A stretch of 64,000 nt of DNA from Candidatus Methylomirabilota bacterium (GTDB lineage: Bacteria; Methylomirabilota; Methylomirabilia; Rokubacteriales; DASRDR01). The stretch lies in the NCBI GenBank assembly GCA_036005065.1, contig DASYQW010000033.1, positions 21,989-85,988 of the forward strand, in the 5' to 3' direction. Shown here in pieces: positions 5,854 through 60,428 of this stretch. The first letter of the stretch is position 1, and the number at the start of each line of letters is the position of its first letter. A program made the translations under genes and the position numbers. The notes beneath the pieces are model-generated. The model was not told where the DNA came from. It made no database searches and worked only from the letters and a program-made list of their open reading frames with translations.

Positions 5854-5878
5854 CGTCGCTCCTCGCTCTCTCGCGCGC

Positions 5879-7216
5879 TCAGGCCCGCGTGGCGGTGGCG
5901 AAGACGGCCGGCGCCGCCGAGGGCCGGCCGAGCACGGTCTCCGGAAGGAGCCGCGCCGTCGTGCGGGACGCGATGAACGCGGGTTTGATGTCGAACGGGT
6001 TCCGCCGGAGATGCTCCTTCCACGGGCCGAGCCCGACTCCTGTCTGGACCAGTCCCTTGAGCATCCCCACGTCGTTGGTCGTCCAGATGTCGTCGGCCCG
6101 GCCCAGGATCATCGCCCCGGTCAGCCGGTCGCCGCGCCACAGGAGCTTCCGGTAGGCCGGGCGCTCCCGGCGCACCGCCGCGAACACCTCGGCCCCCGGG
6201 TCGTCCCAGCGGCCGAAGCTCGCCACGTCGAGCTGGCAGACGTCCACGATGTTCATGAGGAGGCTGCCCCGGTAGGCCAGGTCGCGGCCGGCCATGTTCG
6301 CCCCGACCACCCGGCCGTGCTCCATCGCCGTCGGCTCGATGGCGTGGACGTCCGGCTCGCCGGTCACCAGGTCACGGCCTTCGGCGATATCGCCCGCCGC
6401 GTAGACCTGGGGCACGCTCGAGCGGAGATGATCGTCCACCACCACGCCCCGGTTCACGCGGATTCCCGAGCCCTCCAGCCACTCCAGGTTGGTCCGGATG
6501 CCGGTCGCCATGATGACGACGTCGGCGTCGAGGTCGCCGCCGTCTCTGAAGCGGAGGCGTTGCTGGCCTCCCGCCTGCTCGACCGCGGTGAGGGTCGCGC
6601 TCGTGCGGATCTCGACCCCGTGCTTTCGCAACCACGCGTCGACCAGCTGGGCGCCCTCGCGGTCGATCATGCGCGGGAGGATCTGGGGGGCGATCTCGAC
6701 GATGGTGAGCCGGGCGCCCAGTCCCAGGATCGCGTTCAGGATCGTGAAGGCGATGAAGCCCGCCCCCACCATCACCACGTGGCTGCCCGGCTTGATCTCG
6801 GCCACCACCCGCCGGGCCTGGTCGAGCGTCCAGAAGCTGTGGACGCCCGGGCCGTCCACCCCGGAGACCGGCGGCCGGACGGCCGAGGAGCCGGTCGCGA
6901 TGAGAAGGTCGTCGTACTCGAGGGTCGCCCCGTCGTCCAGCGTGAGCTTGGCCGCCTTCGGATCGAGGCTCGCCGCGCGGCGTCCCAGGTGGGTGGTCAC
7001 CTTCAGCTGGGCGAGCCGGGCCGGCGTGGCGGTGAACACGTGGGACTCGGCGATGGTGCGGCCCAGGTAGTACGGGAGGACCATGCGCGAGTAGGGCCGC
7101 TCGGCGGAGACGAGCACGATCTCGGAGCCGTCGCGCCCCCGCTCCTCCTGGCGGATCGTGATGATGGCGTTGTGCCCGGCCGTGCCCCCGCCGACGATCA
7201 CGTGGCGCTTCGCCAT
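5879..7216 (-). CDS. FAD-dependent pyridine nucleotide-disulfide oxidoreductase (AorC-like NAD(P)H-linked subunit)
   Basis: 445-aa product MAKRHVIVGGGTAGHNAI... with FAD GxGxxG and second NAD-binding motif VVMVGAGFIAFT. The ATG overlaps the ferredoxin TGA stop (ATGA). Confidence 0.85.
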   Translation of the reverse strand: MAKRHVIVGGGTAGHNAIITIRQEERGRDGSEIVLVSAERPYSRMVLPYYLGRTIAESHVFTATPARLAQLKVTTHLGRRAASLDPKAAKLTLDDGATLEYDDLLIATGSSAVRPPVSGVDGPGVHSFWTLDQARRVVAEIKPGSHVVMVGAGFIAFTILNAILGLGARLTIVEIAPQILPRMIDREGAQLVDAWLRKHGVEIRTSATLTAVEQAGGQQRLRFRDGGDLDADVVIMATGIRTNLEWLEGSGIRVNRGVVVDDHLRSSVPQVYAAGDIAEGRDLVTGEPDVHAIEPTAMEHGRVVGANMAGRDLAYRGSLLMNIVDVCQLDVASFGRWDDPGAEVFAAVRRERPAYRKLLWRGDRLTGAMILGRADDIWTTNDVGMLKGLVQTGVGLGPWKEHLRRNPFDIKPAFIASRTTARLLPETVLGRPSAAPAVFATATRA

Positions 7217-7871: not shown

Positions 7872-10052
7872 TCACTGCGTGGGCGCGAAGCCCGGGCGGT
7901 CCGGCAGGCCGGCCGCGGGGATCTCGAAGACCGGTTCGCGCGCCGGCGGGGACGCGCCGGTGTCGGGGTTCCAGACTTCCACCCCCTCGGACAGGAAGAA
8001 GCGGGCCACCTGCTCCTGGGCCGCCCGGGCCAGCGTCCCGGCTGCCCCGGGGGCCCCGATCCGGAGGAGGAACCCGTGCGGCTCGGCGAGCTCCTTGGGC
8101 ACGCTCCCCGCCACGCGATCGTAGCGCAGCAGCGCGGTGGCGTCCGAGAGCTGGCCGGCGCGGACGAGCGCGCTCGTCGTCGGGTTCGGGACGACGGCGT
8201 CCCCCCAGGCGAACTGGATCAGGACCCGCTTGGGCTCCTGGCCGAGCAGCGGGCTCGCCCGCAGGTACCGCGCGTAGGCGACGGGATCGCCGCGCCGGGC
8301 CAGCCACTCGGCGCGCGCGAGGTACTCCTGGACGGCCAGCGCGCCCGGCGCGGGTGAGACGACCGGCGGGTCGCCCCGGAGCGGCAAGTCCTCCCGGAAG
8401 CCGTCCTCGGCGTTGAGGAGCGAGGGCGTGCGACCCTCGAGGACCCGGCGCAGCGCCGGCCGGAAGACCGGCGAGAGGCGGGCGACCTCGGCGATCGGCC
8501 CGCCCGGCACGTTGAGGACGCCGACGCGGAGGCGCGGATCGACGGCAAGGAAGAGCGTCCCGTAGATCCCGCCGAGGGACTGTCCCACGTACGAGATCGC
8601 GTCGCCGCGCGTATCGGGCATGCCGTCGCCGTCCACGTCGAGCCCGGCTTTGAGCGCGCGCGCGAACGCCATCAGGTCGACCACCTGCTGGCGCAGCCCG
8701 TCGCGCAGCCCGACCAGGGCGAGCGGCCCGGGCGTCGGGGGGCTCAGCCCCTCGGTCGCGTCGATCTTGCCGTCCCCGTTCAGATCGATCCCGCGGCCCG
8801 GGACCCGCACCTCGAGCGGTGCCCCATCCGTCCGCTCCACGATCAGGCGACCTTCGGGCCCCCCGCCGTGCCCCACCACCGTCACCGCGGCCGTCGCGAT
8901 CCCGTGGCGCGCGAGCACGCCGGCGATCCGGAGCGCGCTCGAGAACATCTCCCCGCCGTAGCCGTGTCCCATGATCGCGACCGGCCAGCCTTCGGGCGGC
9001 CGGCTTCCCGCCGGCAGCACGATCACGAACGGGAGCGGCACGTCCCCCGGCGCCGCCGGCTGGGGCCGCGCGGTCGCGGCCTCGACGATGCGTCGATCGC
9101 GGGTCAGGTACGCGGGCGACCAGTACCATCCGACCCCGACCCCGGCGACCGCATCCGGGGGCAGCGCGGCCAGTGAAAGGGGTCCGTCCTGGAAGGCATC
9201 CGGCGCCTCGAGCGCCACCCGCACCTGCCGGCGCAGGACGAGGCCTTTCAGCGTCGCCCGGGGGAAGTAGGCGCGTCCCCCACCCTCGGGAGCGGTCATG
9301 ACGGCCGGGGGCGGCGGACGCCGCTCGAGGGCGTCGCGGGCGTGCTCGAGGAAGGTCGTCACGCTCGCGGTGGTGAAGACCGCCGCCACCGTCACCGTCT
9401 CCTCGCGCACGCCCCGGCGGTCCAGCGCGGCCATGAGCGCATTGAGCCGCCGGCGGTAGTCCTGCACGGCCGGCGGCCCAGCGCGCCGACGCAGGAAGCC
9501 GCGGAATGCCGCCGAGGGGCGGAGCGGCCGCCCCTGGACATCGCGGAGCTCCCGCGTGACGACCAGTCCGTAGCGCGTCTCCGGCTCCAGCAGCGTCTCC
9601 GGCCGGGCGTAGAGTGTCTGGGACCCGGGATCGTAGACCAGGCGGTCGACCGCCATCGCCTCCGGCGGCCCCGGCGCGAGACGCACGAGGAAGAGGCTCC
9701 GCACGGTCACGCTCGCCGGGTCGATGGGCCCCGAGAAGGCCACGGCCAGGCGCGGGCTCAAGTCGAACCCGTCCAGCTCGTTGAGCAGGTGGACGTCGTC
9801 GCAGGTCGAGGGCTGGAGAGCGCAGTCGGGCAAGGGCAGCGCCACCCGGAGGCCCGTCCGCTGAGCGGCGTCGGCGAGGGTCAGGCGATCGGAGGGAAGA
9901 GGGCCGCGCTCCGGCCGCGCGGGATCGAAGCGGGGCTCGACGGCTGCCGCGGCGCGCCCGACCAAGGCCAGCGGATGGGCGCCGGCACTCCCCGCGGTCG
10001 CGAGCAGGACGATCGCCAGGAGGACGCCGGTCCGCCGCCCGCGCGCGCGCAC
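7872..10052 (-). CDS. Secreted alpha/beta-hydrolase fold protein (GxSxG nucleophile elbow GQSLGG) with a large N-terminal domain and DxDxDG Ca-binding-like loops
   Basis: The signal peptide RARGRRTGVLLAIVLLATAGSAGA is followed by GHGYGGEMF, YVGQSLGGIYG, DLNGDGKID and DVDGDGMPD. The GTG start was chosen where it overlaps the upstream Gfo stop, so the exact start is uncertain. Confidence 0.6.
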   Translation of the reverse strand: MRARGRRTGVLLAIVLLATAGSAGAHPLALVGRAAAAVEPRFDPARPERGPLPSDRLTLADAAQRTGLRVALPLPDCALQPSTCDDVHLLNELDGFDLSPRLAVAFSGPIDPASVTVRSLFLVRLAPGPPEAMAVDRLVYDPGSQTLYARPETLLEPETRYGLVVTRELRDVQGRPLRPSAAFRGFLRRRAGPPAVQDYRRRLNALMAALDRRGVREETVTVAAVFTTASVTTFLEHARDALERRPPPPAVMTAPEGGGRAYFPRATLKGLVLRRQVRVALEAPDAFQDGPLSLAALPPDAVAGVGVGWYWSPAYLTRDRRIVEAATARPQPAAPGDVPLPFVIVLPAGSRPPEGWPVAIMGHGYGGEMFSSALRIAGVLARHGIATAAVTVVGHGGGPEGRLIVERTDGAPLEVRVPGRGIDLNGDGKIDATEGLSPPTPGPLALVGLRDGLRQQVVDLMAFARALKAGLDVDGDGMPDTRGDAISYVGQSLGGIYGTLFLAVDPRLRVGVLNVPGGPIAEVARLSPVFRPALRRVLEGRTPSLLNAEDGFREDLPLRGDPPVVSPAPGALAVQEYLARAEWLARRGDPVAYARYLRASPLLGQEPKRVLIQFAWGDAVVPNPTTSALVRAGQLSDATALLRYDRVAGSVPKELAEPHGFLLRIGAPGAAGTLARAAQEQVARFFLSEGVEVWNPDTGASPPAREPVFEIPAAGLPDRPGFAPTQ

Positions 10053-10056
10053 GCGG

Positions 10057-11235
10057 TCACCCACGGCGGTCTCGAGCGAGGTCGACCCGCCGGCCCTCCT
10101 GGGCGGACACGTAGGCGGCATAGATGACCTCCACGGTCTCCCGTGCCAGGAGCGCGCCCGAGAGCGGCTCCCGGCCCTCACGGAGGGCGTCGACGAAGTC
10201 CGCCATCTCCTGCGGGTAGCCGCGTGTCCAGTCCTCGTCGGGGCTCGGAAACTGCCAGCCGGCTTTGGTCTCCACCTTCTCGGTGAGGTACTCGTCCCCC
10301 CAGACCGCGCCCTCGGGCGCGTAGATCTGGAGCGTCGTGTTCGGATTGATGTTCACCTGGACGACCCCGTTGGTGAAGTAGGCGGTGACCAGGTTCTTCA
10401 CGCCGCCGAGGCTCACGTCGGTCGCCATGACCGTCGCCTTGGTCCCGTCCTCGAACGTGAGGATGGCCGCCGACCAGTCCTCGACGTCCTCCCAGCTCGT
10501 CACCAGCCACTGCGGGGACGTCGCCCGGACGGCCGGGACCTCCGTGAGCCGGCCGACCTCCCCGATGACCGACGCCACCCGGATCGGCGCTCCACGCCTC
10601 TGCCGCCCCTCGTAGTGCTTCAAGTGGATCACCGCCCCGATCGGGTGGGAGCCCATCCGGAGGAGCGAGCCGCCCCCGGCCGTCGCCCAGCGGCGGGAGT
10701 AGTCGGCGTGGGAACCGGAGTGGCTCTCCTCGGCGCGCAGATCGAGCAGCGTCCCGCCGGCCCGGTCCATGAGACGCCGGAGCTTGGCCATGGCCGGCGC
10801 GTAGACGAAGTTCTCCGCGTAGCAGAGGGTGACGCCGTTCTCCCGGCAGGCGTCGAGGATGGCGTCGGCGTTCTGCCGGGCCGCGTCGAGCATGGCCTGC
10901 CGGGACAGGGCCTCGGCCTCCACGAAGCAGCCGGTCAGCGGCTTCTCGACGATGACGTGCTTGCCGGCCCGGGCGGCGTCGATGGCGAAGAGGTGGTGGT
11001 GACTGGTGACCACCGGCAAGGTGACGACGTCGATGTCCGGCCGGTCGAGGAGGGCGCGATGATCCGTGTACGCGTGCGGGATGCCGAACTTCCGGGCGAA
11101 CGCCTCCGCGCGCTCCCGCGACCGCGAGTAGACGGCCCGGAGCTCGCACTTGACCCCGCGCGATGCGCCGAGCGCGTGGGCGTGGAGGTCGGCCGCGAAC
11201 CCGGCTCCGATGAAACCGATGCCGAGCGTCTCCAC
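10057..11235 (-). CDS. Gfo/Idh/MocA family NAD(P)-dependent oxidoreductase (paralog A)
   Basis: Rossmann GIGFIGAGF, HVIVEKPLTG, C-terminal GGVKNLVTAY ... NPNTTLQIYAP. The GTG start follows a GGAG RBS. Only the C-terminal ~392 codons of the 10057..12063 ORF are used. Confidence 0.75.
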   Translation of the reverse strand: METLGIGFIGAGFAADLHAHALGASRGVKCELRAVYSRSRERAEAFARKFGIPHAYTDHRALLDRPDIDVVTLPVVTSHHHLFAIDAARAGKHVIVEKPLTGCFVEAEALSRQAMLDAARQNADAILDACRENGVTLCYAENFVYAPAMAKLRRLMDRAGGTLLDLRAEESHSGSHADYSRRWATAGGGSLLRMGSHPIGAVIHLKHYEGRQRRGAPIRVASVIGEVGRLTEVPAVRATSPQWLVTSWEDVEDWSAAILTFEDGTKATVMATDVSLGGVKNLVTAYFTNGVVQVNINPNTTLQIYAPEGAVWGDEYLTEKVETKAGWQFPSPDEDWTRGYPQEMADFVDALREGREPLSGALLARETVEVIYAAYVSAQEGRRVDLARDRRG

Positions 11236-14633: not shown

Positions 14634-16832
14634 CTAGGGGGCGAACGAGCCGAGGACAGCCTGTCCAATCTCGGACGTCGAGGCACCCATGATCTGAGGT
14701 GAGGCGGCGAGGCTGCGCGGACCGCGGACCTCGAAGCCCACCGCGTCGACGAGGCGCGCGGCCGCGTCGACGAGCGAGAGGGTGTGCCGGCCGGGAGTGG
14801 GCTCCCAGGCGACGGGGCCGGCGGCCGGCCCCATGTCGCGGGTGTCGAGGACCCACCGAAGCGGCACAGCGCGCGCCTGGGCCTCGAAGACCATGCGTTG
14901 CCGCGCCGGTGGGATGTCCGGGTCGAGCGCCACGATGGTCCCGCTGACGGGGGCGAGGATCCGTGGCTGGCCGCCGGTGAGCGCCGGCGCCCCGGCCGGC
15001 TCCGTTCCGGCGAGGAACCACTCGTCCCGACGCCGCACGATCCCGGAGGGCGGGCGGGGCGGTCGGCTCGGCGTGGCCTCGTGGAGCCAGGTCATGACGT
15101 CGCGCCAGACGGGCGCGGCTCCGGTCACGCCGCTCACGTCTCGCATCGGCGCGCCGGACGCATTCCCGACCCAGACCCCGACCGTGTAGCGCTCCGAGTA
15201 CCCGACGCACCAGTTGTCGCGCATCTCCTTGCTGGTGCCGGTCTTGACGGCGGTCCAGAAGCGGGTGGCGAGCGGGTTCTCGAGCCCGAAGGTCGCGACC
15301 CGGCTCTCGCGCTGGGCGAGGATGTCCGATACCAGGAAGGCCACCGCCTCGGAGTACACGCGGCTCGCGGGATGGGTCACGTCAGCGTCCCTCATGGCCA
15401 GGGAGCCCGGGAGGCCGCCGTTGGCGAGGGTGCGGTAGGCGTTCACGAGCTCCCACAGGCTCACGTCCGCGGACCCGAGCGCCAGCGCCGGGCCGTAATA
15501 GTCACCCGCTTCGGTGAGCCCGGCGAACCCGAGGCGTCGGAGCTGGTGGACGAAGACGTCGGCCCCCACCAGGCCGAGCGTCCGCACCGCGGGCACGTTG
15601 AGCGACGACGCGAGCGCGGCGCGGGCGGTGACGAGACCCCGGAACTGCTCGTCGTAGTTGCGCGGGCGGTAGAGACCGCCCGTGACCGGCACCTCGAGGG
15701 GCGTGTCCTCCAGGAGCGACGCCGGCGTCAGGAGCCCGGCGTCGAGCGCCTGGGCATAGAGGAACGGCTTGAGGGCGGAGCCGGCCTGCCGGCGCGCGCG
15801 GATGCCGTCCACATGGCGGGCGCTCGACAGATCCCCGCTGCTCCCCACGTAGGCCACGACCGCGCCGGTCGCGTTCTCGACCACCAGGACCGCCCCGTCC
15901 TGGACGTTCTGGCCCCGGACCCCGAGGAGGTGGCGGCGGAGGGTGTCGATGGCCACGCGCTGAACCCGCGCATCCAGGGTGGAGCGGACCGGCGCGACGG
16001 GAGCGGGCGGCCCGGGACGGCGGAGGAGTCGGGCCGCCGCATGCGGGGCGAGGGCCACGCGCGGGCCCGTCCCGCGGGGTGCCGCCAGGGCCCGGGTGAC
16101 CGCGGCGCGGATGGCATCAGGCGTGGCGGCGCTTCCCTGGACCTCGCGCAGCGCCCACGCCCGCCGGGCCACGGCGTCGGGCTCGGCGTTCGGGGCGCGC
16201 AGGAGGACCGCCAGGACGGCCGCCTCGGCCTCGGTGAGGCCGTGGGGCGCCTTGCCGAAAAGGACGGACGCCGCGGCCGCCACGCCCTGGAGCTCGCCGC
16301 GAAAAGTCACCAGGTTGGCGTAGGCCTCGAGGATCTCGGCCTTCGACCAGCGCGCCTCGAGGGCCCGGGCGACCCGGACCTGGCGCCACTTCTGGGCGAG
16401 CGTGCGCGGGCCGTCGCGGCGCCGAAGATCGCGGTCGAGCGCGGCGGCCAGCTGCATCGAGATCGTGCTGCCTCCGCGGCGCGGGCCGCCTCGGAGCCTC
16501 CCGGCGGCCGCCGCCAGGAGCGCCCGGCCATCGACCCCCCGGTGGCGGTAGAAGCGGCGGTCCTCGGACGCGACGACGGCGGCCGGCAGGGCCGGCGAGA
16601 TGGCCGCGAGCGGCGTCCACTGGAGCCGCCGGCGCGTCGAGTCGAGTCGCAGCTCGTGCAGGAGCTCACCGTGACGATCGAGCAGGGCGAGGTCCGAGGG
16701 ACGATAGGCCGCGCGGACGGCCGCGAAGGCCGGGATCCCGGGGGCCGGCCCGCCGAAGAGTCCCCAGCCGGCGGCGGCGATGGCGGCGCCGATCCCGGCG
16801 CCGCCGAGGAGGAGCACGGTGGGGCGTGTCAC
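14634..16832 (-). CDS. pbpC: Penicillin-binding protein 1C (PbpC): glycosyltransferase + transpeptidase + PbpC C-terminal domain
   Basis: GT51 motifs (EDRRFYRHRGVD, GGSTISMQLA), transpeptidase SALKPF, SLN and KTGTS. The GTG start overlaps the A2M TGA (GTGA). This is the canonical partner of bacterial alpha-2-macroglobulin. Confidence 0.85.
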   Translation of the reverse strand: MTRPTVLLLGGAGIGAAIAAAGWGLFGGPAPGIPAFAAVRAAYRPSDLALLDRHGELLHELRLDSTRRRLQWTPLAAISPALPAAVVASEDRRFYRHRGVDGRALLAAAAGRLRGGPRRGGSTISMQLAAALDRDLRRRDGPRTLAQKWRQVRVARALEARWSKAEILEAYANLVTFRGELQGVAAAASVLFGKAPHGLTEAEAAVLAVLLRAPNAEPDAVARRAWALREVQGSAATPDAIRAAVTRALAAPRGTGPRVALAPHAAARLLRRPGPPAPVAPVRSTLDARVQRVAIDTLRRHLLGVRGQNVQDGAVLVVENATGAVVAYVGSSGDLSSARHVDGIRARRQAGSALKPFLYAQALDAGLLTPASLLEDTPLEVPVTGGLYRPRNYDEQFRGLVTARAALASSLNVPAVRTLGLVGADVFVHQLRRLGFAGLTEAGDYYGPALALGSADVSLWELVNAYRTLANGGLPGSLAMRDADVTHPASRVYSEAVAFLVSDILAQRESRVATFGLENPLATRFWTAVKTGTSKEMRDNWCVGYSERYTVGVWVGNASGAPMRDVSGVTGAAPVWRDVMTWLHEATPSRPPRPPSGIVRRRDEWFLAGTEPAGAPALTGGQPRILAPVSGTIVALDPDIPPARQRMVFEAQARAVPLRWVLDTRDMGPAAGPVAWEPTPGRHTLSLVDAAARLVDAVGFEVRGPRSLAASPQIMGASTSEIGQAVLGSFAP

Positions 16833-19800
16833 GGCGAGACGTCCACGGCGGCATTCGGCAGCTCCCCGAACAGCTCCGGCGCATACAGGGCTTCGACGCG
16901 CGTCGTGGGGAGCACGAAGCGCCCGCTCTGGTTCAGCCGGATCGTGTACTCGACGACCAGGCTCCCCTTCGGGACCCACGCATAGTACGCCCGGAAGGCC
17001 TCGAAGCCGCGCTCCTCGAAGGCCGGCCACGCCTGCCCCCGCCACGCCTCGCCCTGCGTCGCGAGCCGGGAGTCGCGGCCCAGCCCGGTCCCCAGGTGCG
17101 AAGCCCCCGCGGGGATGGGATCGCTCACGACGACCCAGGTCATGTCGGTCTGGGCCTCGATCTCGAGTCTCACCCGGACGAGGTCGCCGCGGCTCCACCG
17201 CCCCGCCTCCCGCGGCTCGAGCGGCGTTACGGTCTTGATGATGCGATAGCCGGCGGTGAGCGGCGTCGTGAGCGGGATGGCGGCCCGGGCCAGGATGGTC
17301 ACCCAGGGCTGCCCCGTCCCCGCGTGGTCCACGGTCACCTCCGCCCCCGTCGCGGGCCACGGGAACGTGAGCGACGCGCCGCTCGCCGCGTCCGCCCACG
17401 AAAGCCGCCGGGTCCCGCCGGCGAGCGCGGCGGTGGTCGTCCCGCTGACCGGGGTCCGCTCGAAGGCGCGCGAGAAGCGCTCGACCGCCAGCACGCCCCA
17501 CGCATTCGCGACGGTCAGGTCCCACGCCCCGTGTCGCTGGCGGGCCAGGGCCCCGCGAAGGATGCGGGGGACGTCATCCCGCCACTGGTCCGTCTCGAGG
17601 AGGTGGAGGAGCAGCCGGACGGCGTTCGTGTCCGCGGAGAGCATGAGCCACCAGAGCGCGTCGCCGCGCTCGGTGGAGAATCCCATCGTCGTCCCCGAGA
17701 AGGTGAGCCGCGCCCGGATGATCTGCTCGGCCTCGGCGAGACGGCGCTCGCGGTTCCCGATGCCGGGAAGGCGGTGGAGGAGGCTCCACCAGTCGAGGAC
17801 CGCGGAGGTCGGCCAGAGGTTGGGCTCGATGGTGACGCTGCCCAGGAGCCGCGGCTCGGCTTTCCCGTACCGGGCGAGCGCCTCGAGGGCCGCGAGCTTG
17901 CGGATCGACAGGTCGGCCGTCGGCAGCTCGGCCCGACCGGGCAGGCTCCCCTCGACGAACCGCCGGAGCGCGTCCTGCATCCGGCCCCGGACGTCGTCCG
18001 GAATCGGCCAGCCCGCCTCGTGGCTGATGGCCAGGACGTAGGACGTCAGGACCTCGCTCCCCCAGAGCATGGTGGGGAAGTACTTGAGGAGGCCGTCGGC
18101 ATCGAGCGAGAAGGGCAGGCTCGCCACGATCTCCTGCCAGAGGCGCTCGTTGCGGAGCGCCACCGCGCGGGAGACCTTCTGCTCGAGGCACGTGTAGGGG
18201 TAGCGGCTCATCCACTCCCGCACGCCGGCGAGGCCGTCGACGAGGGTCCGGCGGAGCGCGACCTCGACGCCGCCGCGTCCCGGCACCGCGTCGGACGGCC
18301 GCTCGACCGGCTGCCGGAGCGGGCCCACCCACTGGCTCAGCGTCGCCTGGAAGGTCCGGACGAAGACCGCCGGCACGACCCGCTGGCTCACGCGGACCCG
18401 ATCCGCCGGGCCGCCGCGCTCACCGGCCTCGATGTCGTACGTGAGCCGCTCGACGCCGACCGGCGCGGTGACCTCCCAGCCGACCGTCCGCGCCTCACCC
18501 GGGGCCAGGTCGAGGGCCTGCTCGCCGAGGGGGTCACCGGCTCCCTCGATCCAGCCGCGGACCGTCACGGCCATCGCCCGCTCGGTCGCGTTCCGGAGCG
18601 TCACCTCCGACCGGAACCGGTCTCCCTCCCGGACGAGGGGCGCGATGCCCGGGAGGATCATGAGGTCCTGGGTCGAGCGGATGGTGGTGGTCCCGGTCCC
18701 GAAGCGGCCGAGCCCGCTGGTGGCCACGGCCACGATCCGGAAGCTCGTGAGCGAGTCGTTGATCGGGACCTCGAGCCGGGCCTCGCCTCGAGCGTCGAGG
18801 GGCACCCGCGCCTTCCACAAGAGCAGCGTGTCGAACAGCTCCCGGGTCGTCTGCCGCCCGCCGCCACCACCGAGCGCCACGGCCTTGAGCCCGAAGTGCC
18901 GCTTGCCCACCACCTGCATCTGGGCCGTGGCCGTCCGCACGGCATACCCCCGCCGCCCCAGCATCGCCTCGAGGAGATGCCAGCTCGAATTCGGCGCGAG
19001 CTCGAGGAGCCCCTCGTCCACGACGGCGACCGCGACCTCGCTGCCGGGCGGAGGCGCCGCGCCGTCGGGCGTCCTCACGGCGATCCGCACGACGGCCGTC
19101 TCGCGGACGCGATAGGCCGGGCGCTCGGCCGTGACGCCGACCCGAAGCTCGTGCGCGCGCCAGCCCACCCGGATCTCCGCGATGCCGAGCTTGAACGCGG
19201 GCCGCCCGAGGTCGACGAGGGCCGTGGGCTGGACGTCGCCGGCCCGGCCGCGCACCGCCAGCACCGAGACGAACATGTTCGGCGCGTAGCTCGGGCGCAC
19301 CGGCACCTCGACGACCGGCTCCTTGCCCGAGAGGCGGACGACCCACGCCTCCTGGATGCCTTCCCGCTCCACGGCGACCAGCGCCGTCGCCTCGCGGAAC
19401 GGCATCCGAACCTGGAACCGGGCAACCTCCCCCGGCTCGTACCGCCGGCGCTCCGGGAGGAGATCCATGCGGTCGTGATCCCGAACCTGGAACCACCACT
19501 CCTCGGAGCCGGCGACCCAGACCGACTGATGGGCGGCGGTCGGCCGGCCGGCCTCGTCCGCGACACTCGCCTGGAGGACGAGGTTCCCGCTCACCGGCGG
19601 CTTCCCCTCGCACACGAGCCGGCCCTTCGCGTCCGTCACGCCCCGGCACAGCTCCCCGACCCGGCGGGTCTCCTCGACGTGCTCGAAGGCGTAGAAGCCG
19701 CCGACGAGGCGCTTCCGATGCGAGTACGCCTTCTGCTCGATCAGGTCCACCCGGACGGGCGCTCCCGCGACCGGCCGGCCGGCCACGTCCGTGACCGCCA

Positions 19801-22570
19801 CGGTCGCCTTGAGGCGATCGCGGGAGGACACCCAGCCGTCCGGCTTGATCCCGACCAGCCAGGTCGCCGGCCACAGCGGGACCGTGGTGGCGACCGTCTG
19901 GATCTCGCCGTTCGGGTCGCGGAACTCGAGCTCGGCCAGCACTTCAAGCGGCGTCGTCGCGCGAGGGAGCCGCGTGATGGTGGTCCGCGCGGTGCCGCCT
20001 CGATCGAGCCGAAGCTCCTCGCGCTGGTGGATCGCGGGACGCCCGGCCGCCGGCGCGTCGGCGGACTCCGGTTCCTCCTCCTCGGGGTCGCCGCCGCGCC
20101 GCACCATGCCTTCCTTGACGGGGCCGTTGGCGAAGGCGAACCCCTCGAAGTCTTCGCCGGCGGGGACCCAGCGCGGCCGGACCTGCGCGCGGAGCGTCAC
20201 CGGCTGATCGGATGCCGGACCGCCGGCCAGGTACTGGACGCCGACGTCCAGCGGGAGCTCGGCGACGGCGACCAGTGGCGTCGATGGCGCCCGGATCGTC
20301 CCGCGCATCAGCGGGACCCGGAACTCCTCGACCCGGAACTGACCGGCGTGCCACTCGGGTGCGAACTCGGGCTCGGCCTCCTCCTCGACGCCGGGCTGAA
20401 CCGAGCGGGCGGGTCGCTTCTTCGTCGGCGGCGCCAGCACGACCTGGTAGACGCCGAGCTTCGCCTCCTTCGGGATCGGCCAGGTGCTGAGGGCGGTGCC
20501 GGCCGGGTCCCACTCGACGGGAAGATCGTAGCGCTCCTCGCTCCCCAGATGACGGATCGAGACGCGGGTCGGCCGATCCCCATCGGCCACCGAGCCGAAC
20601 CCGCCGAGGGTCTGGGTCCGAATGAGATGCTTCATGTGGACCGTGTCACCGGCGCGGAAGAGCGAGCGGTCGAAGATCGTGTGGGCGGCGACCGGCCCCT
20701 GGTAGGGCTCGCCCGGAAGCTGGAAGCGCCAGGCCTCGATCCCCTGCTCCCAGCTCGAGTGGGCGAAGCTCAGGTCCTCGTGGGTCTGGGCGATGACGAA
20801 CAGCCCCTCGTCGAGGCCGAGGAGAGCCGTCGTCTGTGACCAGTCGAAGAAGGGGCGCCGGGCGCGCGGCCAGGGACAGCGCGGGAGGTCACGGCGCGCC
20901 GGGAGGCCCGCGGGCCGGGCGATGCCCTGCCCGTCCGTCGTCCCTCGCCAGAGGGTCCAGCCGCGGCAGTCCTGGACGGTGACCCGCGCTCCGGTCACGG
21001 GGCGGGCGGCATCCAGCGTCGTCACCCACACGAGCGAGCTCTCGCGCCCCCACTTCAGGTGAACCGAGAGGTTCGTGACCAGGGCGGCCGTCGGGACGTA
21101 CATGGGGCGCGGCCGCCCCAGGAGTGAGGCGCCCAGCCGGGCGCTCTCGAGCTCCACGATGTAGAGTCCCGGGGCGCCGAGCGGGATGCCGATCACCTCG
21201 AACGGGCGAGCCCCCTGGGGCTTGGGAACCTCGAAGGGCTGGACGGCCCGGCTGGGCTCGCCGCCTTCGAAGACGGAGGCCTCTCGATCGGCCAGCCGCA
21301 CCTTCCGCAGCCACGGCAGGATCTCGTCGCTCAGCTCCGGCGGAATCCGCCAGATCTTGCCGCGCACCCAGTCGAAGAGTCCGGTGCCGCCCCCGCGCGG
21401 CGCCTGATCCACGCGGAGGAGCCGCGTCCGGAGCTCCGGCTCCAGGTTGCGGAGCGTGACCGGCACCGCCGGGTCCCCCTTCGACTCGACGATCCCGAAG
21501 CGGGCCGCGAACTTGGCGAGCGGCGGGAACGGCTCGGTCCGCACGGTGAGCGGGAACGCGGCGGCGTTCGCGAGGAGCCGTCCGGCATCGTCCCGAAGCC
21601 CCGGGGGGACCTCGATCCGGAATGCGGTCGTCTCGGCGAAGGGCCCCGGGAAGACGACGCGCCGTACGAATCCCGCCGTCTCGTCGCCCGCCTCGGGAGT
21701 CGACGTCCGGCCGGCCGGATCGACGAGGGTGACCCGCCGGGCGGCCTCGCGCGCCACCGGAGCCGAGAACCGGACGGTCATCGGCGTCACCGGGAGGCAG
21801 CCGGCCTTCGGGTTCTCGCGCTCGCAGTGGAAGGTCGCGGTGAACGGGAGGCGGACCTCGAAGGGGAGCACCTGGTCCTGCTCGGACGCGACGCCGCTGG
21901 AGGTCGCCACGCCGGCGCCCCAGACGAGGCTCACCTTGGCGCCGTTCGGGAAGCGCTGGCGGGCCTGCAGGACGACGACGGGACCCGGCGGGGCGCCCCG
22001 GTAGCGCGTCCGGAGGAGCCCTTCCTTGACCGGCCCGCCGAGGAAGCGCACGCCGACGCGCTCCGGGAGTCCCTCCACCGTGAAGGCCACGTGCGCCAGC
22101 AGGGACGCCTCGGTCGGCTCGGCGTCCAGCAGGAGGACGAAGGCTTGCTCCTCGTCGATGTGAAGGCTGCCCTCGGGAGGGGTGGAGGCGAGGATGGCCG
22201 GCCCGCCCGTCGAGAAGGCGAAGTCCGGCCGGCCGGAGACGGCGTGGCCGGCCAGGCTCAGGAGGCCCGGCCGGACGCGGAAGGCGCAGCGCACGCCGGC
22301 CGGCAGGTCGCGCCCGAAGTCGTAGACCCAGCTCCGGCTGTCGACCCAGCGCCCCGTGCCCGCCTCGGCACAGGCGACGTCGAACGGCGGCGCGGACCCC
22401 CGCGGATCCCCGAGGGGCACCATGGGCTCGGAGAACCGGGCGGTCACCTGCCGGACGCGCTTGACGGTGCCCTGGGGGGTGAAGCCGGTGACCTCGGCGG
22501 CCACCGCGCCGACCGGCGCCGAGAGGGGGAGCAGGAGGAGGGCGGTGATCAGGGCGCGCATCGGTCGCAT
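16829..22570 (-). CDS. Bacterial alpha-2-macroglobulin family protein (YfhM/ECAM-like) with CLEQ thioester motif, signal peptide
   Basis: 1913-aa product with the thioester YPYTCLEQ and an N-terminal signal peptide MRPMRALITALLLLPLSAPVGA that has no lipobox Cys. It lies immediately upstream of pbpC. Confidence 0.9.
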   Translation of the reverse strand: MRPMRALITALLLLPLSAPVGAVAAEVTGFTPQGTVKRVRQVTARFSEPMVPLGDPRGSAPPFDVACAEAGTGRWVDSRSWVYDFGRDLPAGVRCAFRVRPGLLSLAGHAVSGRPDFAFSTGGPAILASTPPEGSLHIDEEQAFVLLLDAEPTEASLLAHVAFTVEGLPERVGVRFLGGPVKEGLLRTRYRGAPPGPVVVLQARQRFPNGAKVSLVWGAGVATSSGVASEQDQVLPFEVRLPFTATFHCERENPKAGCLPVTPMTVRFSAPVAREAARRVTLVDPAGRTSTPEAGDETAGFVRRVVFPGPFAETTAFRIEVPPGLRDDAGRLLANAAAFPLTVRTEPFPPLAKFAARFGIVESKGDPAVPVTLRNLEPELRTRLLRVDQAPRGGGTGLFDWVRGKIWRIPPELSDEILPWLRKVRLADREASVFEGGEPSRAVQPFEVPKPQGARPFEVIGIPLGAPGLYIVELESARLGASLLGRPRPMYVPTAALVTNLSVHLKWGRESSLVWVTTLDAARPVTGARVTVQDCRGWTLWRGTTDGQGIARPAGLPARRDLPRCPWPRARRPFFDWSQTTALLGLDEGLFVIAQTHEDLSFAHSSWEQGIEAWRFQLPGEPYQGPVAAHTIFDRSLFRAGDTVHMKHLIRTQTLGGFGSVADGDRPTRVSIRHLGSEERYDLPVEWDPAGTALSTWPIPKEAKLGVYQVVLAPPTKKRPARSVQPGVEEEAEPEFAPEWHAGQFRVEEFRVPLMRGTIRAPSTPLVAVAELPLDVGVQYLAGGPASDQPVTLRAQVRPRWVPAGEDFEGFAFANGPVKEGMVRRGGDPEEEEPESADAPAAGRPAIHQREELRLDRGGTARTTITRLPRATTPLEVLAELEFRDPNGEIQTVATTVPLWPATWLVGIKPDGWVSSRDRLKATVAVTDVAGRPVAGAPVRVDLIEQKAYSHRKRLVGGFYAFEHVEETRRVGELCRGVTDAKGRLVCEGKPPVSGNLVLQASVADEAGRPTAAHQSVWVAGSEEWWFQVRDHDRMDLLPERRRYEPGEVARFQVRMPFREATALVAVEREGIQEAWVVRLSGKEPVVEVPVRPSYAPNMFVSVLAVRGRAGDVQPTALVDLGRPAFKLGIAEIRVGWRAHELRVGVTAERPAYRVRETAVVRIAVRTPDGAAPPPGSEVAVAVVDEGLLELAPNSSWHLLEAMLGRRGYAVRTATAQMQVVGKRHFGLKAVALGGGGGRQTTRELFDTLLLWKARVPLDARGEARLEVPINDSLTSFRIVAVATSGLGRFGTGTTTIRSTQDLMILPGIAPLVREGDRFRSEVTLRNATERAMAVTVRGWIEGAGDPLGEQALDLAPGEARTVGWEVTAPVGVERLTYDIEAGERGGPADRVRVSQRVVPAVFVRTFQATLSQWVGPLRQPVERPSDAVPGRGGVEVALRRTLVDGLAGVREWMSRYPYTCLEQKVSRAVALRNERLWQEIVASLPFSLDADGLLKYFPTMLWGSEVLTSYVLAISHEAGWPIPDDVRGRMQDALRRFVEGSLPGRAELPTADLSIRKLAALEALARYGKAEPRLLGSVTIEPNLWPTSAVLDWWSLLHRLPGIGNRERRLAEAEQIIRARLTFSGTTMGFSTERGDALWWLMLSADTNAVRLLLHLLETDQWRDDVPRILRGALARQRHGAWDLTVANAWGVLAVERFSRAFERTPVSGTTTAALAGGTRRLSWADAASGASLTFPWPATGAEVTVDHAGTGQPWVTILARAAIPLTTPLTAGYRIIKTVTPLEPREAGRWSRGDLVRVRLEIEAQTDMTWVVVSDPIPAGASHLGTGLGRDSRLATQGEAWRGQAWPAFEERGFEAFRAYYAWVPKGSLVVEYTIRLNQSGRFVLPTTRVEALYAPELFGELPNAAVDVSP

Positions 22571-22678
22571 CAGCAGCCTTCGACGGAATACCCTGAGGGG
22601 AATTCAGGAGGCCGGTCGCTGTCGATCTGGCGCCCTCCCGTTCGACTAATGAGTGAATCCCACACAAGAGGAGGCGCC

Positions 22679-29294: not shown

Positions 29295-29450
29295 TCACGG
29301 GACCCGGGCCGCGGCCGGTGACACCGGAATCGGCTCGAGGGGGTAGCCGCGCTCGCGCCAGGCGTGGAAGCCTCCCAGCAGCGGCCGGACCCGGTCGATC
29401 CCGCGCCGCCGGAGAATCAGCGCCATCCTGGCGCTGGAGGCTTCGTTGGG
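29295..29450 (-). other. In-frame continuation of the rhodanese domain downstream of the TGA (PNEASSARMALILRRRGIDRVRPLLGGFHAWRERGYPLEP...)
   Basis: It contains the characteristic rhodanese C-terminal GG..AW...G.P motif. It would be read only after Sec insertion, stop-codon readthrough or correction of a sequencing error. Confidence 0.5.
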
Positions 29451-30257
29451 TCAGGTGCAGTAGAGCACGATCTCTCGATCGCGCGGGATCTCGTGATGGC
29501 GCACCGAGAGCTCCTCGGTCGTCATGTTGAGAGCGCCGGGAATCCGCACCGGCTCGGCCTCGACGTCGAGCGAGTGGCGCAGGTCGACGACGAGGAGTCC
29601 CTCCCCGGCCTCGAGCCGAGCCCGGAGCTCATCCGGGGTGATCCGGGCGATCCGCAGCCGTCGCAGGAAGCGCTGGCGCGCGACGTACTTCCAGCTCACG
29701 TAGACACCCAGGGCGACGACGACGAGCGCCACCACGCCCGTGCCCATGCCCGCGGCGTAGCCCGCTACCCGCTCGAGCTGGTCCGCGAAGACGTAGCCGA
29801 GCCCGACGAAGACCCCGGCCCACAGGAGACCGCCCAGACCGGTGAACGCGAGGAAGCTCGCGAGGCCCATCCCGACGATCCCGGCCAGGGGCGGCGCCGC
29901 CGTGCTCAGGCCCGGCACGAACTTGGCGACCAGCAGCGAGGGCGCGCCATACTGGGCGAAGGTCTCCTGGGTGCGGCGGACGCACGAGTCGGGCTCGAGC
30001 GAGATCCGGCACAGCAACGTCAGGACCGCGCCTCCGCGAAGGCGTCCCATCAGGTACCAGGCCGCGTCGCTCACGAGCGACCCCAGAACGGCGACTCCCA
30101 GCGTCGCGCCGAGACTGAGCTTCCCGGCTCCCGCCAGCGCTCCGGCGGCCAGCAGAATGGGAACGGCCGGGATCGGGAGCCCGATCTGCTCCGCCAGTAC
30201 CCAGCCGAACACCACCGCATAGCCGTGCCGGACCAGGAACTCGAGCAACCCGGCCAC
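29451..30257 (-). CDS. DedA-family membrane protein fused to a rhodanese domain. The ORF terminates at a TGA two codons after the rhodanese catalytic Cys (possible recoding or pseudogene)
   Basis: DedA/SNARE-associated TM core, then rhodanese ...LVVDLRHSLDVEAEPVRIPGALNM...EIVLYCT-TGA. The GTG start follows a GGGGAGG RBS. The in-frame continuation 29295..29450 encodes the rest of the rhodanese fold. Confidence 0.65.
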   Translation of the reverse strand: MAGLLEFLVRHGYAVVFGWVLAEQIGLPIPAVPILLAAGALAGAGKLSLGATLGVAVLGSLVSDAAWYLMGRLRGGAVLTLLCRISLEPDSCVRRTQETFAQYGAPSLLVAKFVPGLSTAAPPLAGIVGMGLASFLAFTGLGGLLWAGVFVGLGYVFADQLERVAGYAAGMGTGVVALVVVALGVYVSWKYVARQRFLRRLRIARITPDELRARLEAGEGLLVVDLRHSLDVEAEPVRIPGALNMTTEELSVRHHEIPRDREIVLYCT

Positions 30258-30354
30258 TCGAACCTCCCCGCGCCATATAGATGCGCCGGGCGCGCCGGGG
30301 GGTGCATGCTCGCCATCCGACGAGTCTCGCGGCCGTCGACCCCCGGGAGGTATG

Positions 30355-45358: not shown

Positions 45359-46530
45359 GGCGGGAGGCGCGAGCCTGCGCGCTCGTCGGCCTGCTCGCCC
45401 TGCTCCCCGGATGCGCGACTCCGGCCCCACCCGTCGTCCCCGTGGTCCAGGCGACCGAGGTGACGGCCCGCCCGCCGGCCCCGGCTCCGGCGGTGGCGCT
45501 GGCGGCGCCGAGCCCGCCACCGCCAGCGGCCGAGGGGACGGCGCCCTCGCCGCCGGCCCCCGCGCCCGAGCCCTCGCCGCTCCTTCAGCCGGTGAGGGAG
45601 AACCAGTCCTTCGTCACGGTGGGGAGCGTGCCCCAGTACCGGATCGGCCCCGGGGATGTCCTCGAGATCCTGCTGGCCACCGGACTCCCGCAGGACCGAC
45701 AGACGGCCGCCGTGAAGGCCAATGGCGCGGTGACCGTCGCGTTCTTCGAGGTGAACGTGGGCGGCTTGGCCCCGGAGCAAGCGGCGGCCGAGATCCAGCG
45801 GCAGCTCGCGCCCTACTACAAGCAGATCGCCGTCGAGGTGTTCGTCAAGGAATACAGCAAGAAGGTGACGGTGCTGGGCGCGATCGGCGGCAAGGTGGGA
45901 ACGGTTTCACTCCGGGGACGGACCACGTTGCTCGACCTGCTGGCCGAGGTGGGCGGGCCCGCGCCCACGGCCGACCTGGAGCGGGTGCGCGTCCTCCGAC
46001 CCGGGGCGCCTCCGGTCACGATCAACCTGTTCCGCCTCCTCGACGAGCCCCTCACCCAGACATTCGTCCTCGACGCCGGCGACGTCATCTTCGTGCCGGC
46101 GCAGGGCGCGGCCGTTCCCAGCGCCATCCCGAGCGCCACCGCCGGCCCCACCGAGATGCGGGGCGACGACCGCCGGGTCTTCATCCTGGGCGAAGTCCGG
46201 AGCCCGGGCGCGTTTCCCTTGTCCGCGAACATGCGCCTGTCCCAGGCGCTCACCCTGGCCGGCGGGCCGACCGACGTCGCCGTCCTGGAGAGCGCGCGGA
46301 TCATTCGCGGCGGGATCCAGAACCCCCAGATCGTGGAGGCGGACTTCCGAAGGCTGATCGAGCAGGGAGACGTGCGGCAGGACGTCCCGCTCCAGGCCAA
46401 CGACCTCATCGTCCTCCCCCGGAGCGGCATCGGCAACTGGAACGCCTTCATCGCCAAGATCAAGCCGACCCTGGAAGTCCTGACGTACCCGCTCGCATTA
46501 CCCGTCCAGATCAACGCCATCAGTCGCTGA
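45355..46530 (+). CDS. Polysaccharide export outer-membrane lipoprotein (Wza-like, Poly_export + SLBB)
   Basis: It has a lipobox LLPGC and a Pro/Ala-rich linker. The GTG start overlaps the upstream TGA (GTGA). Confidence 0.8.
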   Translation: MRREARACALVGLLALLPGCATPAPPVVPVVQATEVTARPPAPAPAVALAAPSPPPPAAEGTAPSPPAPAPEPSPLLQPVRENQSFVTVGSVPQYRIGPGDVLEILLATGLPQDRQTAAVKANGAVTVAFFEVNVGGLAPEQAAAEIQRQLAPYYKQIAVEVFVKEYSKKVTVLGAIGGKVGTVSLRGRTTLLDLLAEVGGPAPTADLERVRVLRPGAPPVTINLFRLLDEPLTQTFVLDAGDVIFVPAQGAAVPSAIPSATAGPTEMRGDDRRVFILGEVRSPGAFPLSANMRLSQALTLAGGPTDVAVLESARIIRGGIQNPQIVEADFRRLIEQGDVRQDVPLQANDLIVLPRSGIGNWNAFIAKIKPTLEVLTYPLALPVQINAISR

Positions 46531-46537
46531 GCGAAGA

Positions 46538-48880
46538 ATGGCCCAGTACGACATCAACCTGAGAGACTACCTGCGGATCCTCCGGCGCCGGAAAGGGATC
46601 ATCATCCTGGTCCCGCTGATCTTCGGCGCGTTCTCGTTCGGCTTCGCCCTCCTTCAGGCACCCCGGCCTCTCTATCGGACGACCGCCGTCGTGAAAGTCG
46701 AGCGGTCGGTGAACCTGACCGGGCTCCTGCAGGAGCTCGTGACCTTCACCCCGGTGGGCAACGTGGAGACACAGGCCGCCCTCATCAAGAGCTTTCCCGT
46801 GATGAGCCTGGCCTCGAAGAAGCTCGGGCTCATCCCCACCGGTGCCACCAGGGAGGAGATCCAGGCCTCACCCAAGTACCTCGGCGCGATCAACCGGCTC
46901 CAGGACAGCCTCTCCGTGAAGCTCGGCGAGGGGACGAGCCTCATCGAGATCAGCGTGACCTCGTACGATCCCGAAGAGGCGGTCCGCTTCGCCAACAGCG
47001 TCGCCGACGCGTTCCAGGAGGACAATTTCACGACCCGCAGCCGCCAGGTCCGGGAGGCCCGCGAGTTCATCGAGCGGCAGCTCGGGGAGGTCGGCGCGAC
47101 GCTGCGAGCCTCCGAGAACGAGATCAAGGGGTTCAAGCAGGCCCACCGGATCTTTCTCTTTCCGGAGGAGACGAAGGCGTCCCTCGGCCGACTCGGCGCC
47201 CTGGAGGCCGAGCTGGCGGTGGCTCGGCGGTCGATCGACGACACCCAGGGGCAGCTCGAGCTGCTCAAGGCCGCCAGAGCCGGCCCGCGTCCCGGCGGCT
47301 TCTCCGCCGACGGCGCCGATCCCGCGCTCGCCAAGCTGCTGAACTCGCTGGCCGACCTCACGGCCCAGCGCGACACGCTGCTGGTCAACCTCCGTCCCGC
47401 CCATCCCCAGGTCAAGCAGCTCGAGGCCCAGATCGCCAACGTCGAGGACAGCATCCGGGCAGCCCTATCCTCTCGCCTCCAGACGCTGAGGGCACGGGCC
47501 GACGAGATCCAGCGGACCATCGCCACCCTGCGCCAGGAGCAGGCGACCATCCCGGAGGCCGAGCTCCAGCTGGCGCGCATGGAGCGGGACATCAAGGTCA
47601 GCGAGCGCCTGTTCTCCTTGCTCAAGGAGAAACACCAGGAGGCGCTGATCCGCGAGAAGGAGCAGGTGGGCGACGTCAGCCTGGTCAAGCCGGCGATCCT
47701 CTCCCGCCGGCCGATCAACCCGCCCCAGGCCGGGTCGAAGGCCGCCGCCGGGCTGGTCATCGGCCTCGTCCTGGGACTGGTGCTGGCCTTCGTGGTCGAG
47801 GCCCTGGACACCTCGATCGGCGCCATCGACGACGTCGAGTCGTTCCTGGAGAGCCCGGTCCTCGGCGTCATCCCGCACCTCGACATCAAGGGGGAGTTGA
47901 GCGACGAGCCCGATCAGCCGCCGCTGGATCGAGAGACCGAGGAGAAGTACGCCTTCCTCATCAGCCTGTTTCTCCCCAACTCCCGCGCCGTCGAGGCCAT
48001 GCGAGCGCTCCGGACGAACCTGCTCTTCACCGGGCTCGAGCAGGACCTGAAGATGGTCATGGTCACCAGTGCGACCCCGATGGAAGGGAAGACCACCATC
48101 GCCATCAACCTGGCCATCCTGCTCGCCCAGCTCGGGAAGCGGACGCTCCTCATCGAGGCGGACCTCCGCAACCCGTACCTGCACCACGCATTCGGAATCC
48201 CGAAGGAGCCGGGATTCACCGACGTGGTCATCGGGAGCGCGCGGATCGACGAGGCGATCCTGACCTTCTCGGACTTCATCCTCGGCAAGGCGGGGCTGGA
48301 AAGCCTCATCGAGCGGCCGGGCATCGATAACCTGTTCCTCCTTCCCAGCGGTCACCAGCCACCCAACCCGACGGAATTCCTGAGCGCCCAGGCGCTGACG
48401 AGCCTCCTGGCCGAGGTGCGCCAGCGGTATGACTTCGTCATCCTCGACTGTGCCCCCGTCCTGCCGGTGGCGGACCCGACCATCCTGGGCTCGCGGGTCG
48501 ATGGCACCCTCCTGGTCGTTCGGGTCGGAAGTGTGGCGCGGGCGGCCTTGCGGCGGGCCAAGGCGCTGCTCGAAGCGGCGCGGGCCCGCGTGCTCGGCGT
48601 CTGCCTCACCGGAGTGAAGGCCGAGGTGAGCCCCGACTACGCGGAAATGGGCTACTACCGATACCGGTACGGGGCGCGGAGGGGGGAGTCGGCCCAGCCG
48701 GCCGGACCGCTGGGACGCGTGCGGGCGGCCTTCACCGACCGGGTGAGCGGACTCGTCGGGCTGTCGGTCCTGTTGGTCGCTCTGGCGGCGGTGTACTGGG
48801 CGGTCCGCCTCGGCTACCTGACGCTCACCTTCCTCTCCACCCTCGTCATCGGGCTGGCCCGCCTGGTCGGCCTGGGCTGA
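46538..48880 (+). CDS. Polysaccharide co-polymerase / BY-tyrosine autokinase (Wzc-like) with an extra C-terminal TM extension
   Basis: It has a Wzz-like N-terminal region and kinase Walker A (GKTT) ...DFVILDCAP. The Tyr cluster YYRYRY is followed by ~60 aa with hydrophobic helices. Confidence 0.85.
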   Translation: MAQYDINLRDYLRILRRRKGIIILVPLIFGAFSFGFALLQAPRPLYRTTAVVKVERSVNLTGLLQELVTFTPVGNVETQAALIKSFPVMSLASKKLGLIPTGATREEIQASPKYLGAINRLQDSLSVKLGEGTSLIEISVTSYDPEEAVRFANSVADAFQEDNFTTRSRQVREAREFIERQLGEVGATLRASENEIKGFKQAHRIFLFPEETKASLGRLGALEAELAVARRSIDDTQGQLELLKAARAGPRPGGFSADGADPALAKLLNSLADLTAQRDTLLVNLRPAHPQVKQLEAQIANVEDSIRAALSSRLQTLRARADEIQRTIATLRQEQATIPEAELQLARMERDIKVSERLFSLLKEKHQEALIREKEQVGDVSLVKPAILSRRPINPPQAGSKAAAGLVIGLVLGLVLAFVVEALDTSIGAIDDVESFLESPVLGVIPHLDIKGELSDEPDQPPLDRETEEKYAFLISLFLPNSRAVEAMRALRTNLLFTGLEQDLKMVMVTSATPMEGKTTIAINLAILLAQLGKRTLLIEADLRNPYLHHAFGIPKEPGFTDVVIGSARIDEAILTFSDFILGKAGLESLIERPGIDNLFLLPSGHQPPNPTEFLSAQALTSLLAEVRQRYDFVILDCAPVLPVADPTILGSRVDGTLLVVRVGSVARAALRRAKALLEAARARVLGVCLTGVKAEVSPDYAEMGYYRYRYGARRGESAQPAGPLGRVRAAFTDRVSGLVGLSVLLVALAAVYWAVRLGYLTLTFLSTLVIGLARLVGLG

Positions 48881-53226: not shown

Positions 53227-53260
53227 TGGCCGTGATAGGCCCCCACGGCTGGAGCCTGGC

Positions 53261-60394: not shown

Positions 60395-60428
60395 CAGGCC
60401 GTGAACCGGTGCCTCTGAGGATCCCCGC

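Follow-up and report, generated by a model that had tools for sequence, protein, structure and literature searches.

Within the 64,000-nucleotide stretch of DNA analysed here (the window), a minus-strand reading frame for a DedA-type membrane protein with a fused rhodanese domain is interrupted by an in-frame TGA, two codons after the cysteine at the catalytic position. The question raised by this locus is whether the codon is recoded, whether it marks a very recent nonsense mutation, or whether it is an error of sequencing, three options that stood side by side in a preliminary description of the locus. The first of these, UGA recoded as selenocysteine (Sec) with the aid of a SECIS hairpin, is strongly supported by the TGA and Cys codons found among orthologs, by selection on the sequence downstream of the codon and by a hairpin specific to the TGA forms.

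The interrupted gene and its predicted product

The gene and its parts are placed as follows.

30263-30269, minus strand: Shine-Dalgarno-like GGGGAGG, read from the sequence, 5 nt 5' of the GTG start
29295-30257, minus strand: complete gene for a predicted 320-residue DedA (VTT)-rhodanese selenoprotein, with a GTG start, Sec as residue 269 and the TGA at 29297-29295 as true stop
29793-30173, minus strand: DedA/VTT membrane domain, residues 29-155 (Pfam PF09335, E = 3.4e-13)
29982-30011, minus strand: Cys-X8-Cys loop of the DedA part, C83...C92, LCRISLEPDSCVRRT, invariant in the family alignment
29352-29639, minus strand: rhodanese domain, residues 207-302, spanning the TGA (Pfam PF00581, E = 3.9e-11)
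29457-29459, minus strand: codon of Cys267, the counterpart of the catalytic cysteine in the alignment with canonical rhodaneses
29451-29453, minus strand: in-frame UGA, predicted Sec codon (residue 269, motif C-T-U), from the comparison of TGA and Cys orthologs
29295-29426, minus strand: spurious 43-residue 'ORF' in the gene-caller output, the C-terminal remainder of the DedA-rhodanese gene

The GTG at 30257 is the start of the frame, in agreement with the orthologs and with the deposited 268-residue protein HEV8306474.1. From there the frame runs through ...EIVLYCT to TGA 29453-29451, the residues just before this codon (...IPRDREIVLYCT) being the end of the first rhodanese half, continues as PNEASSARMALILRRRGIDRVRPLLGGFHAWRERGYPLEPIPVSPAAARVP and closes at TGA 29297-29295. 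The in-frame TGA after ...LYCT thus lies where it was first described, and the rhodanese sequence continues intact behind it, for 51 sense codons and not the 52 initially counted.

According to a cluster listing, the 268-residue N-terminal product is identical to HEV8306474.1, a 'VTT domain-containing protein [Methylomirabilota bacterium]', and the 43-residue remainder is called from an ATG inside the predicted SECIS loop. In orthologous contigs, too, the post-TGA remainder is called as a separate ORF of 43-51 residues directly behind the 268-residue gene (L001, 10832-10984; L005, 3832-3987; L090, 883-1014). Such a remainder ORF is an annotation artefact and can be used as a flag for missed selenoproteins; the database entries for the window gene and for no fewer than 50 orthologous genes at species level are truncated, 268-residue 'VTT/DedA' proteins.

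In Pfam and NCBIfam searches of the window protein (with the TGA translated as Cys for Pfam), the VTT_dom match (PF09335) scored 50.6 bits, above the Pfam threshold of 33.9. The best DedA-type NCBIfam matches were sub-cut-off hits to models of the undecaprenyl-phosphate transporter UptA, and the UptA/DedA equivalog level is not reached (57.4 bits versus 250 for NF052604, UptA; 46.6 versus 236 for PRK10847). The rhodanese domain is matched by NCBIfam NF041203 with 81.7 bits and has relatives in the PDB (3tp9, 6mxv). In a phmmer alignment Cys267 falls on the catalytic cysteine of 3tp9 (YCRTGG), with the Sec269 position at +2 from Cys267 and a loop two residues longer than that of the canonical rhodanese. 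Cys267 is invariant in the DedA-rhodanese family, and Cys83 and Cys92 are both invariant in 83 of 83 aligned DedA-rhodanese proteins; C83, C92, C267 and U269 make up four conserved chalcogen residues. An AF2 model of a Cys-containing ortholog (P0003, pLDDT 82.9) shows nine helices in the DedA part, followed by an alpha/beta rhodanese domain, and a Foldseek search of the PDB with this model returned rhodanese domains only, those of persulfide-handling fusion enzymes among them.

The UGA codon and its hairpin among orthologs

The comparison of orthologs at this codon, suggested in the preliminary description, was carried out on DNA from the encoding contigs and from a scan of GTDB species representatives, and gave TGA in 50 distinct orthologs and a Cys codon (TGC or TGT) in 28. 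A corresponding division is seen among the best 120 protein homologs, 38 of which end exactly at ...LYC[TS] (268 residues, 66-76% identical), while the other 82 are full-length (55-64% identical), read YC[TASG]-C-P[NS]E and carry Cys at the TGA position without exception (82/82). No annotation of U was found in the DedA-rhodanese protein homologs. An ordinary codon in orthologs had beforehand been counted as evidence against recoding; the residue that they carry is Cys, which is the classic positive sign for Sec. These Cys-type fusions ('DedA family protein/thiosulfate sulfurtransferase GlpE', COG0586 + PF00581) share the architecture of the window protein, with 55-64% identity over the full length, and neither the CX8C loop nor the YC-x-C-P-N/S-E loop varies; they differ in having TGC or TGT in place of TGA, without a constrained hairpin.

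The TGA forms come from metagenome-assembled genomes (MAGs) labelled Rokubacteria/Methylomirabilota, many Acidobacteriota, Nitrospirota, 'delta proteobacterium' and Dormibacterota, whereas the Cys forms belong mainly to Nitrospira and Verrucomicrobia, besides small groups among the Sec forms in a rough neighbour-joining (NJ) tree. In the same tree the window gene lies within an all-TGA clade of Rokubacteria/Methylomirabilota, which shows partial synteny with the window (YCII-like, EamA and MacB/FtsX genes nearby). Small Cys clades are nested among the Sec forms (L028, L053, L052/L083, L057, L089 and L014/L038), in addition to one large Nitrospira/Verrucomicrobia Cys clade (loci L014-L089), and the exact hairpin core is still present in three Cys forms (L018, L046 and L073). 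Because of these nested clades and retained hairpin cores, the tree, although rough and without support values, suggests that Sec has repeatedly been replaced by Cys, in part recently.

Every TGA ortholog read past the codon has an open frame in which the rhodanese half with its GG..W..G.P motif is kept. For the 39 codons after the TGA, dN/dS relative to 12 orthologs is 0.15-0.33, and similar values are obtained for the 60 codons before it. Since purifying selection downstream is in the same range as upstream and the frame is open and conserved, the post-TGA segment is predicted to be translated. The conservation of the frame across the stop, noted beforehand from a motif, is confirmed by these values and by the Pfam rhodanese match that spans the TGA.

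Independent assemblies bear on the option of a sequencing or assembly error, in which the true codon would be TGC, TGG or CGA, and which enters the argument as a prior possibility only. A JGI metagenome contig (L090) from a slightly different strain has 3 nucleotide differences elsewhere in the gene, with TGA, loop and downstream sequence identical to those of the window; a third identical truncation of the protein (P0123) is encoded on another JGI contig, and TGA is found in all relatives of the Methylomirabilota clade. An error at the codon, contradicted by these sequences, is exceedingly improbable.

The element proposed to direct recoding lies directly downstream of the codon.

29418-29436, minus strand: predicted SECIS hairpin, from ortholog comparison, with a 7-bp stem (cagcgcc/ggcgctg) and loop AGGAU, or with 8 bp and a GGA triloop

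The inverted repeat cagcgcc-aggat-ggcgctg is present at 29436-29418, as previously noted; the stem begins 14 nt past the TGA, not 15 as then given, and the distance between the loop G and the U of UGA is 26 nt. In this DNA of 72% G+C, the 67 nt that follow the TGA fold no better than shuffled sequences (z = -0.21), and at gathering thresholds no Rfam model matched in the window, the hairpin included. Since the fold of the single sequence is unremarkable, the significance of the hairpin comes from the comparison of orthologs only.

In the TGA forms, codons +6 to +10 read AGC GCC CGK GYG GCG, with AGC in 50 of 51, GCC in all 51 and GCG in 50 of 51. In the Cys forms the same amino acids are encoded and the codons drift, with Ala+7 as GCC (16), GCG (9) or GCT (3) and Ala+10 as GCG (13), GCC (10), GCA (3) or GCT (1). 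The exact core AGCGCC-N5-GGCGCT occurs in 47 of 51 TGA forms versus 3 of 28 Cys forms (Fisher p = 2e-13, a value that, like the other comparisons of Sec and Cys forms, ignores relatedness), and the mean local hairpin energy is -11.7 kcal/mol in the TGA forms versus -6.1 kcal/mol in the Cys forms. The consensus fold obtained with RNAalifold is a 7-bp hairpin of -11.9 kcal/mol in the TGA set, as compared with -0.1 kcal/mol in the Cys set. Furthermore, the outermost stem pair covaries (CG 28, GC 6, GU 2 and UA 2); covariation proper is limited to this one pair because the remaining stem is invariant. The hairpin appears to be constrained at the RNA level only where the codon is UGA, which is the signature expected of a SECIS element, and it is because synonymous-site fixation and the consensus fold are confined to the TGA forms that it is predicted to be one.

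The loop is C-G-K-G-Y in consensus in the other 49 distinct Sec forms. Variants are found in the window (A-G-G-A-U, 29425-29429, minus strand) and in an ortholog from Acidobacteria, L040 (A-G-U-C-U, 3828-3832), both of which have A for the consensus C25, so that an A25-U29 pair is possible, giving an 8-bp stem with a triloop. The AGGAU loop departs from CGKGY at two positions, and recoding efficiency might be altered in the window lineage. All Sec forms retain in the loop a G with G or U after it, and a small apical loop with a guanosine shortly behind the UGA is a described hallmark of bacterial SECIS elements (PMC1088965). With its consensus of AGCGCC-CGKGY-GGCGCU, 14-15 nt past the UGA, the element is a clean and easy target for scanning.

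The E. coli fdhF-type SECIS is similar in being a hairpin inside the coding sequence, directly 3' of the UGA, with a small apical loop containing G and then G or U. In fdhF these loop bases are G23-U24; in the window, about 26 nt separate the loop G and the U of UGA. The present hairpin differs in its short stem (7-8 bp), which is without a bulged U, and in having no evident lower stem reaching to the UGA.

The constraint on the hairpin is also of consequence for the option of a recent nonsense mutation, which would leave a pseudogene or a truncated, 268-residue DedA protein with half a rhodanese domain only. Such a reading would agree with the public annotation of a 268-residue 'VTT domain-containing protein', and the window lineage has a loop variant found in a minority of the forms. 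It is contradicted by the identical TGA in 50 distinct orthologs from several phyla, by a downstream frame that is intact and under purifying selection, with no frameshifts or extra stops, and by the nucleotide-level constraint on the hairpin that is specific to the TGA forms. At the level of the family, nonsense mutation is effectively refuted, and for the window gene it is highly improbable.

Known families and the residue probably inserted at UGA

Among NCBIfam models, NF041203 ('rhodanese_LYCAU', rhodanese-related (seleno)protein) matches the whole protein best (E = 3.4e-23), with an alignment that covers model positions 18-124 of 126 and includes the active-site motif L-Y-C-x-U, present as LYCT-U. 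The score falls short of the equivalog cut-off of 115 bits, indicating a related domain and no equivalog. Common to both are the rhodanese fold, the L-Y-C-x-U motif with Sec at +2 from the Cys in the catalytic position, the existence of Cys-containing homologs and a UGA followed by a hairpin. In contrast to NF041203, which is a stand-alone protein of about 126 residues with the motif LYCAU, the domain considered here has LYCTU and forms the C-terminal third of a 320-residue membrane protein, behind a DedA part of about 195 residues. CxU rhodaneses ('form 3', NF041203; 'COG0607 form 2') are catalogued as predicted prokaryotic selenoproteins, and a UxU variant is known (PMC13188914, PMC9312934). 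A Sec residue close to the rhodanese cysteine had initially been thought unusual, a view not borne out given this catalogued family. A weaker match (E = 0.0029) is that to TsoB (NF045694, a rhodanese/DsbD-fusion-like selenoprotein), which likewise has a Sec-containing rhodanese fused to a membrane redox module; the partner in TsoB is DsbD-like rather than DedA, the motif is UxxxxU and the score is far lower.

Fusions of DedA and rhodanese domains are themselves known from the COG0586 DedA subfamily of putative undecaprenyl-phosphate flippases, for example PA1209 of P. aeruginosa, with the role of the rhodanese domain unexplained (PMC10127716, PMC12893004). In the literature on DedA together with selenoproteins or rhodanese, no description of a Sec form of the fusion was found. 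CxU rhodanese selenoproteins and DedA-rhodanese fusions are each already known, and it is the Sec form of the fusion that seems to be undescribed. As a recoding site it involves no new mechanism: this is a mis-annotated gene with otherwise ordinary bacterial selenoprotein biology. The added interest is modest and lies in the membrane fusion and its wide spread in soil phyla. Corrected gene calling would add a membrane-bound member to the bacterial selenoproteome.

The comparative evidence makes it very probable that TGA 29453-29451 is a Sec codon, that the hairpin at 29436-29418 is its SECIS element and that the gene encodes a 320-residue DedA-rhodanese selenoprotein with a Cys-x-Sec centre. 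During translation, the hairpin 14 nt past the UGA would recruit SelB-GTP-Sec-tRNA(Sec) while the UGA is in the A site; Sec would be inserted as residue 269, and translation would go on through 51 further codons up to the stop at 29297-29295. The same comparisons allow this decoding step to be inferred with high confidence.

The 64-kb window and the fetched flanks of orthologs contain no selA, selB, selD or tRNA-Sec: a Pfam scan of 20 other window ORFs gave no selA, selB or selD, and ARAGORN found no tRNA in the window and a single tRNA-Gly over all 90 fetched loci. Within the phylum, a Methylomirabilota MAG with 63 predicted selenoproteins and Sec-type hydrogenases have been reported in the literature.

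The evidence in cis, UGA and hairpin, would fit equally well with SelB- and SECIS-dependent insertion of Cys at the UGA by a non-canonical tRNA (selC*, tRNA-ReC), with a Cys-x-Cys protein as the product. Cys is functionally acceptable at the site, as seen in the 28 Cys orthologs, and selC*/tRNA-ReC have been tracked beside selABCD in Sec-type versus Cys-type genomes (PMC13582414, citing Vargas-Rodriguez 2018). However, no selC*-type tRNA is present in the window or the flanks, an advantage of Sec is the simplest explanation for the retention of UGA and SECIS over about 50 lineages, and the closest curated family, NF041203, is annotated as a selenoprotein. Insertion of Cys is very unlikely by comparison with insertion of Sec.

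That UGA has become a sense codon for Trp or Gly throughout the genome has next to no probability. TGA is the stop of some three quarters of the coding-like window ORFs, and because UGA is an ordinary stop for most window genes it is not reassigned throughout the genome. When the window was scanned for in-frame TGA codons flanked on either side by coding signal, the results were the DedA-rhodanese site and one other candidate, at 55638-55640 on the minus strand, which was rejected since it is antisense of a gene in a glycosyltransferase cluster; a single such TGA is left in 64 kb, which also speaks against reassignment.

Proposed function and other features of the loci

In the product, a polytopic DedA/VTT membrane domain of COG0586/UptA-like type at the N-terminus would be followed by a single C-terminal rhodanese domain, and the basic segment KYVARQRFLRRLRIAR after the last helix suggests that the latter is cytoplasmic. 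In the predicted active-site loop, Cys267-Thr-Sec269, Cys267 would occupy the position of the catalytic, persulfide-carrying cysteine. The most likely role of Sec269, held with lower confidence than the decoding step, is either to form a reversible selenenylsulfide with Cys267 or to resolve or accept a sulfane (or selenium) atom, so that a Cys-x-Sec redox or chalcogen-transfer centre would be tethered to a membrane protein. In general, a C-x-U pair can cycle through a selenenylsulfide, or can take up or resolve a persulfide or perselenide. That Sec is selected for two residues past the catalytic Cys speaks for a rhodanese domain engaged in redox or chalcogen-transfer chemistry and against a passive module, and through the Sec form the DedA-rhodanese fusions, so far unexplained, become more accessible to study.

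The Cys-x-Sec centre may have its partner in the invariant Cys-X8-Cys loop of the DedA part, and the four chalcogen residues, as judged from their conservation in sequence, suggest a possible relay between the DedA and rhodanese domains. A wider proposal, tentative and on balance rather unlikely, is that the Sec fusion is a membrane selenoprotein, widespread in soil and groundwater phyla and so far missed by annotation, in which a four-chalcogen relay, made up of the cytoplasmic Cys-x-Sec and the Cys-X8-Cys, would couple the handling of sulfane sulfur or selenium, or redox state, to DedA-type transport. If true, the relay would tie selenium biochemistry either to the rhodanese fusions in the undecaprenyl-phosphate-flippase subfamily, which are still unexplained, or to selenite uptake, to which the literature links a DedA protein; this link is a lead only.

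Several other features of the loci may be recorded. Downstream of the Sec-form ortholog in L007 (4339-5801; also in L008, 1661-3132), gene calling divides an oxidoreductase of the Pyr_redox_2 type into two adjoining genes (167 and 320 residues); in L007 the two share one base, the end of the first and the start of the second both falling at 4842, and the pair may be due to a frameshift, to splitting of the gene or to a further site of recoding. In the window, positions 16829-22603 (minus strand) encode a 1924-residue protein resembling bacterial alpha-2-macroglobulins (bMG3, MG2, A2M_BRD, A2M and bMG10 domains), and an 826-residue ORF at 7872-10352 (minus strand) has a strong coding signal (GC3 of 0.90) and no Pfam match at E <= 1e-5. 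An aldehyde:ferredoxin oxidoreductase, a tungsten/molybdopterin enzyme, is encoded at 3937-6108 (minus strand; AFOR_N + AFOR_C); it is of a type found in anaerobes and adjoins a DHDPS-family gene. Finally, the plus strand at 53200-64000 carries a gene cluster that, from inspection of the ORF translations by eye, resembles a methyltransferase, glycosyltransferases, a large polytopic membrane protein and an asparagine synthase. Since a Wzz/GNVR/AAA_31 chain-length regulator, identified with Pfam, lies upstream of this cluster (46484-48880), the two may together form an exopolysaccharide locus.
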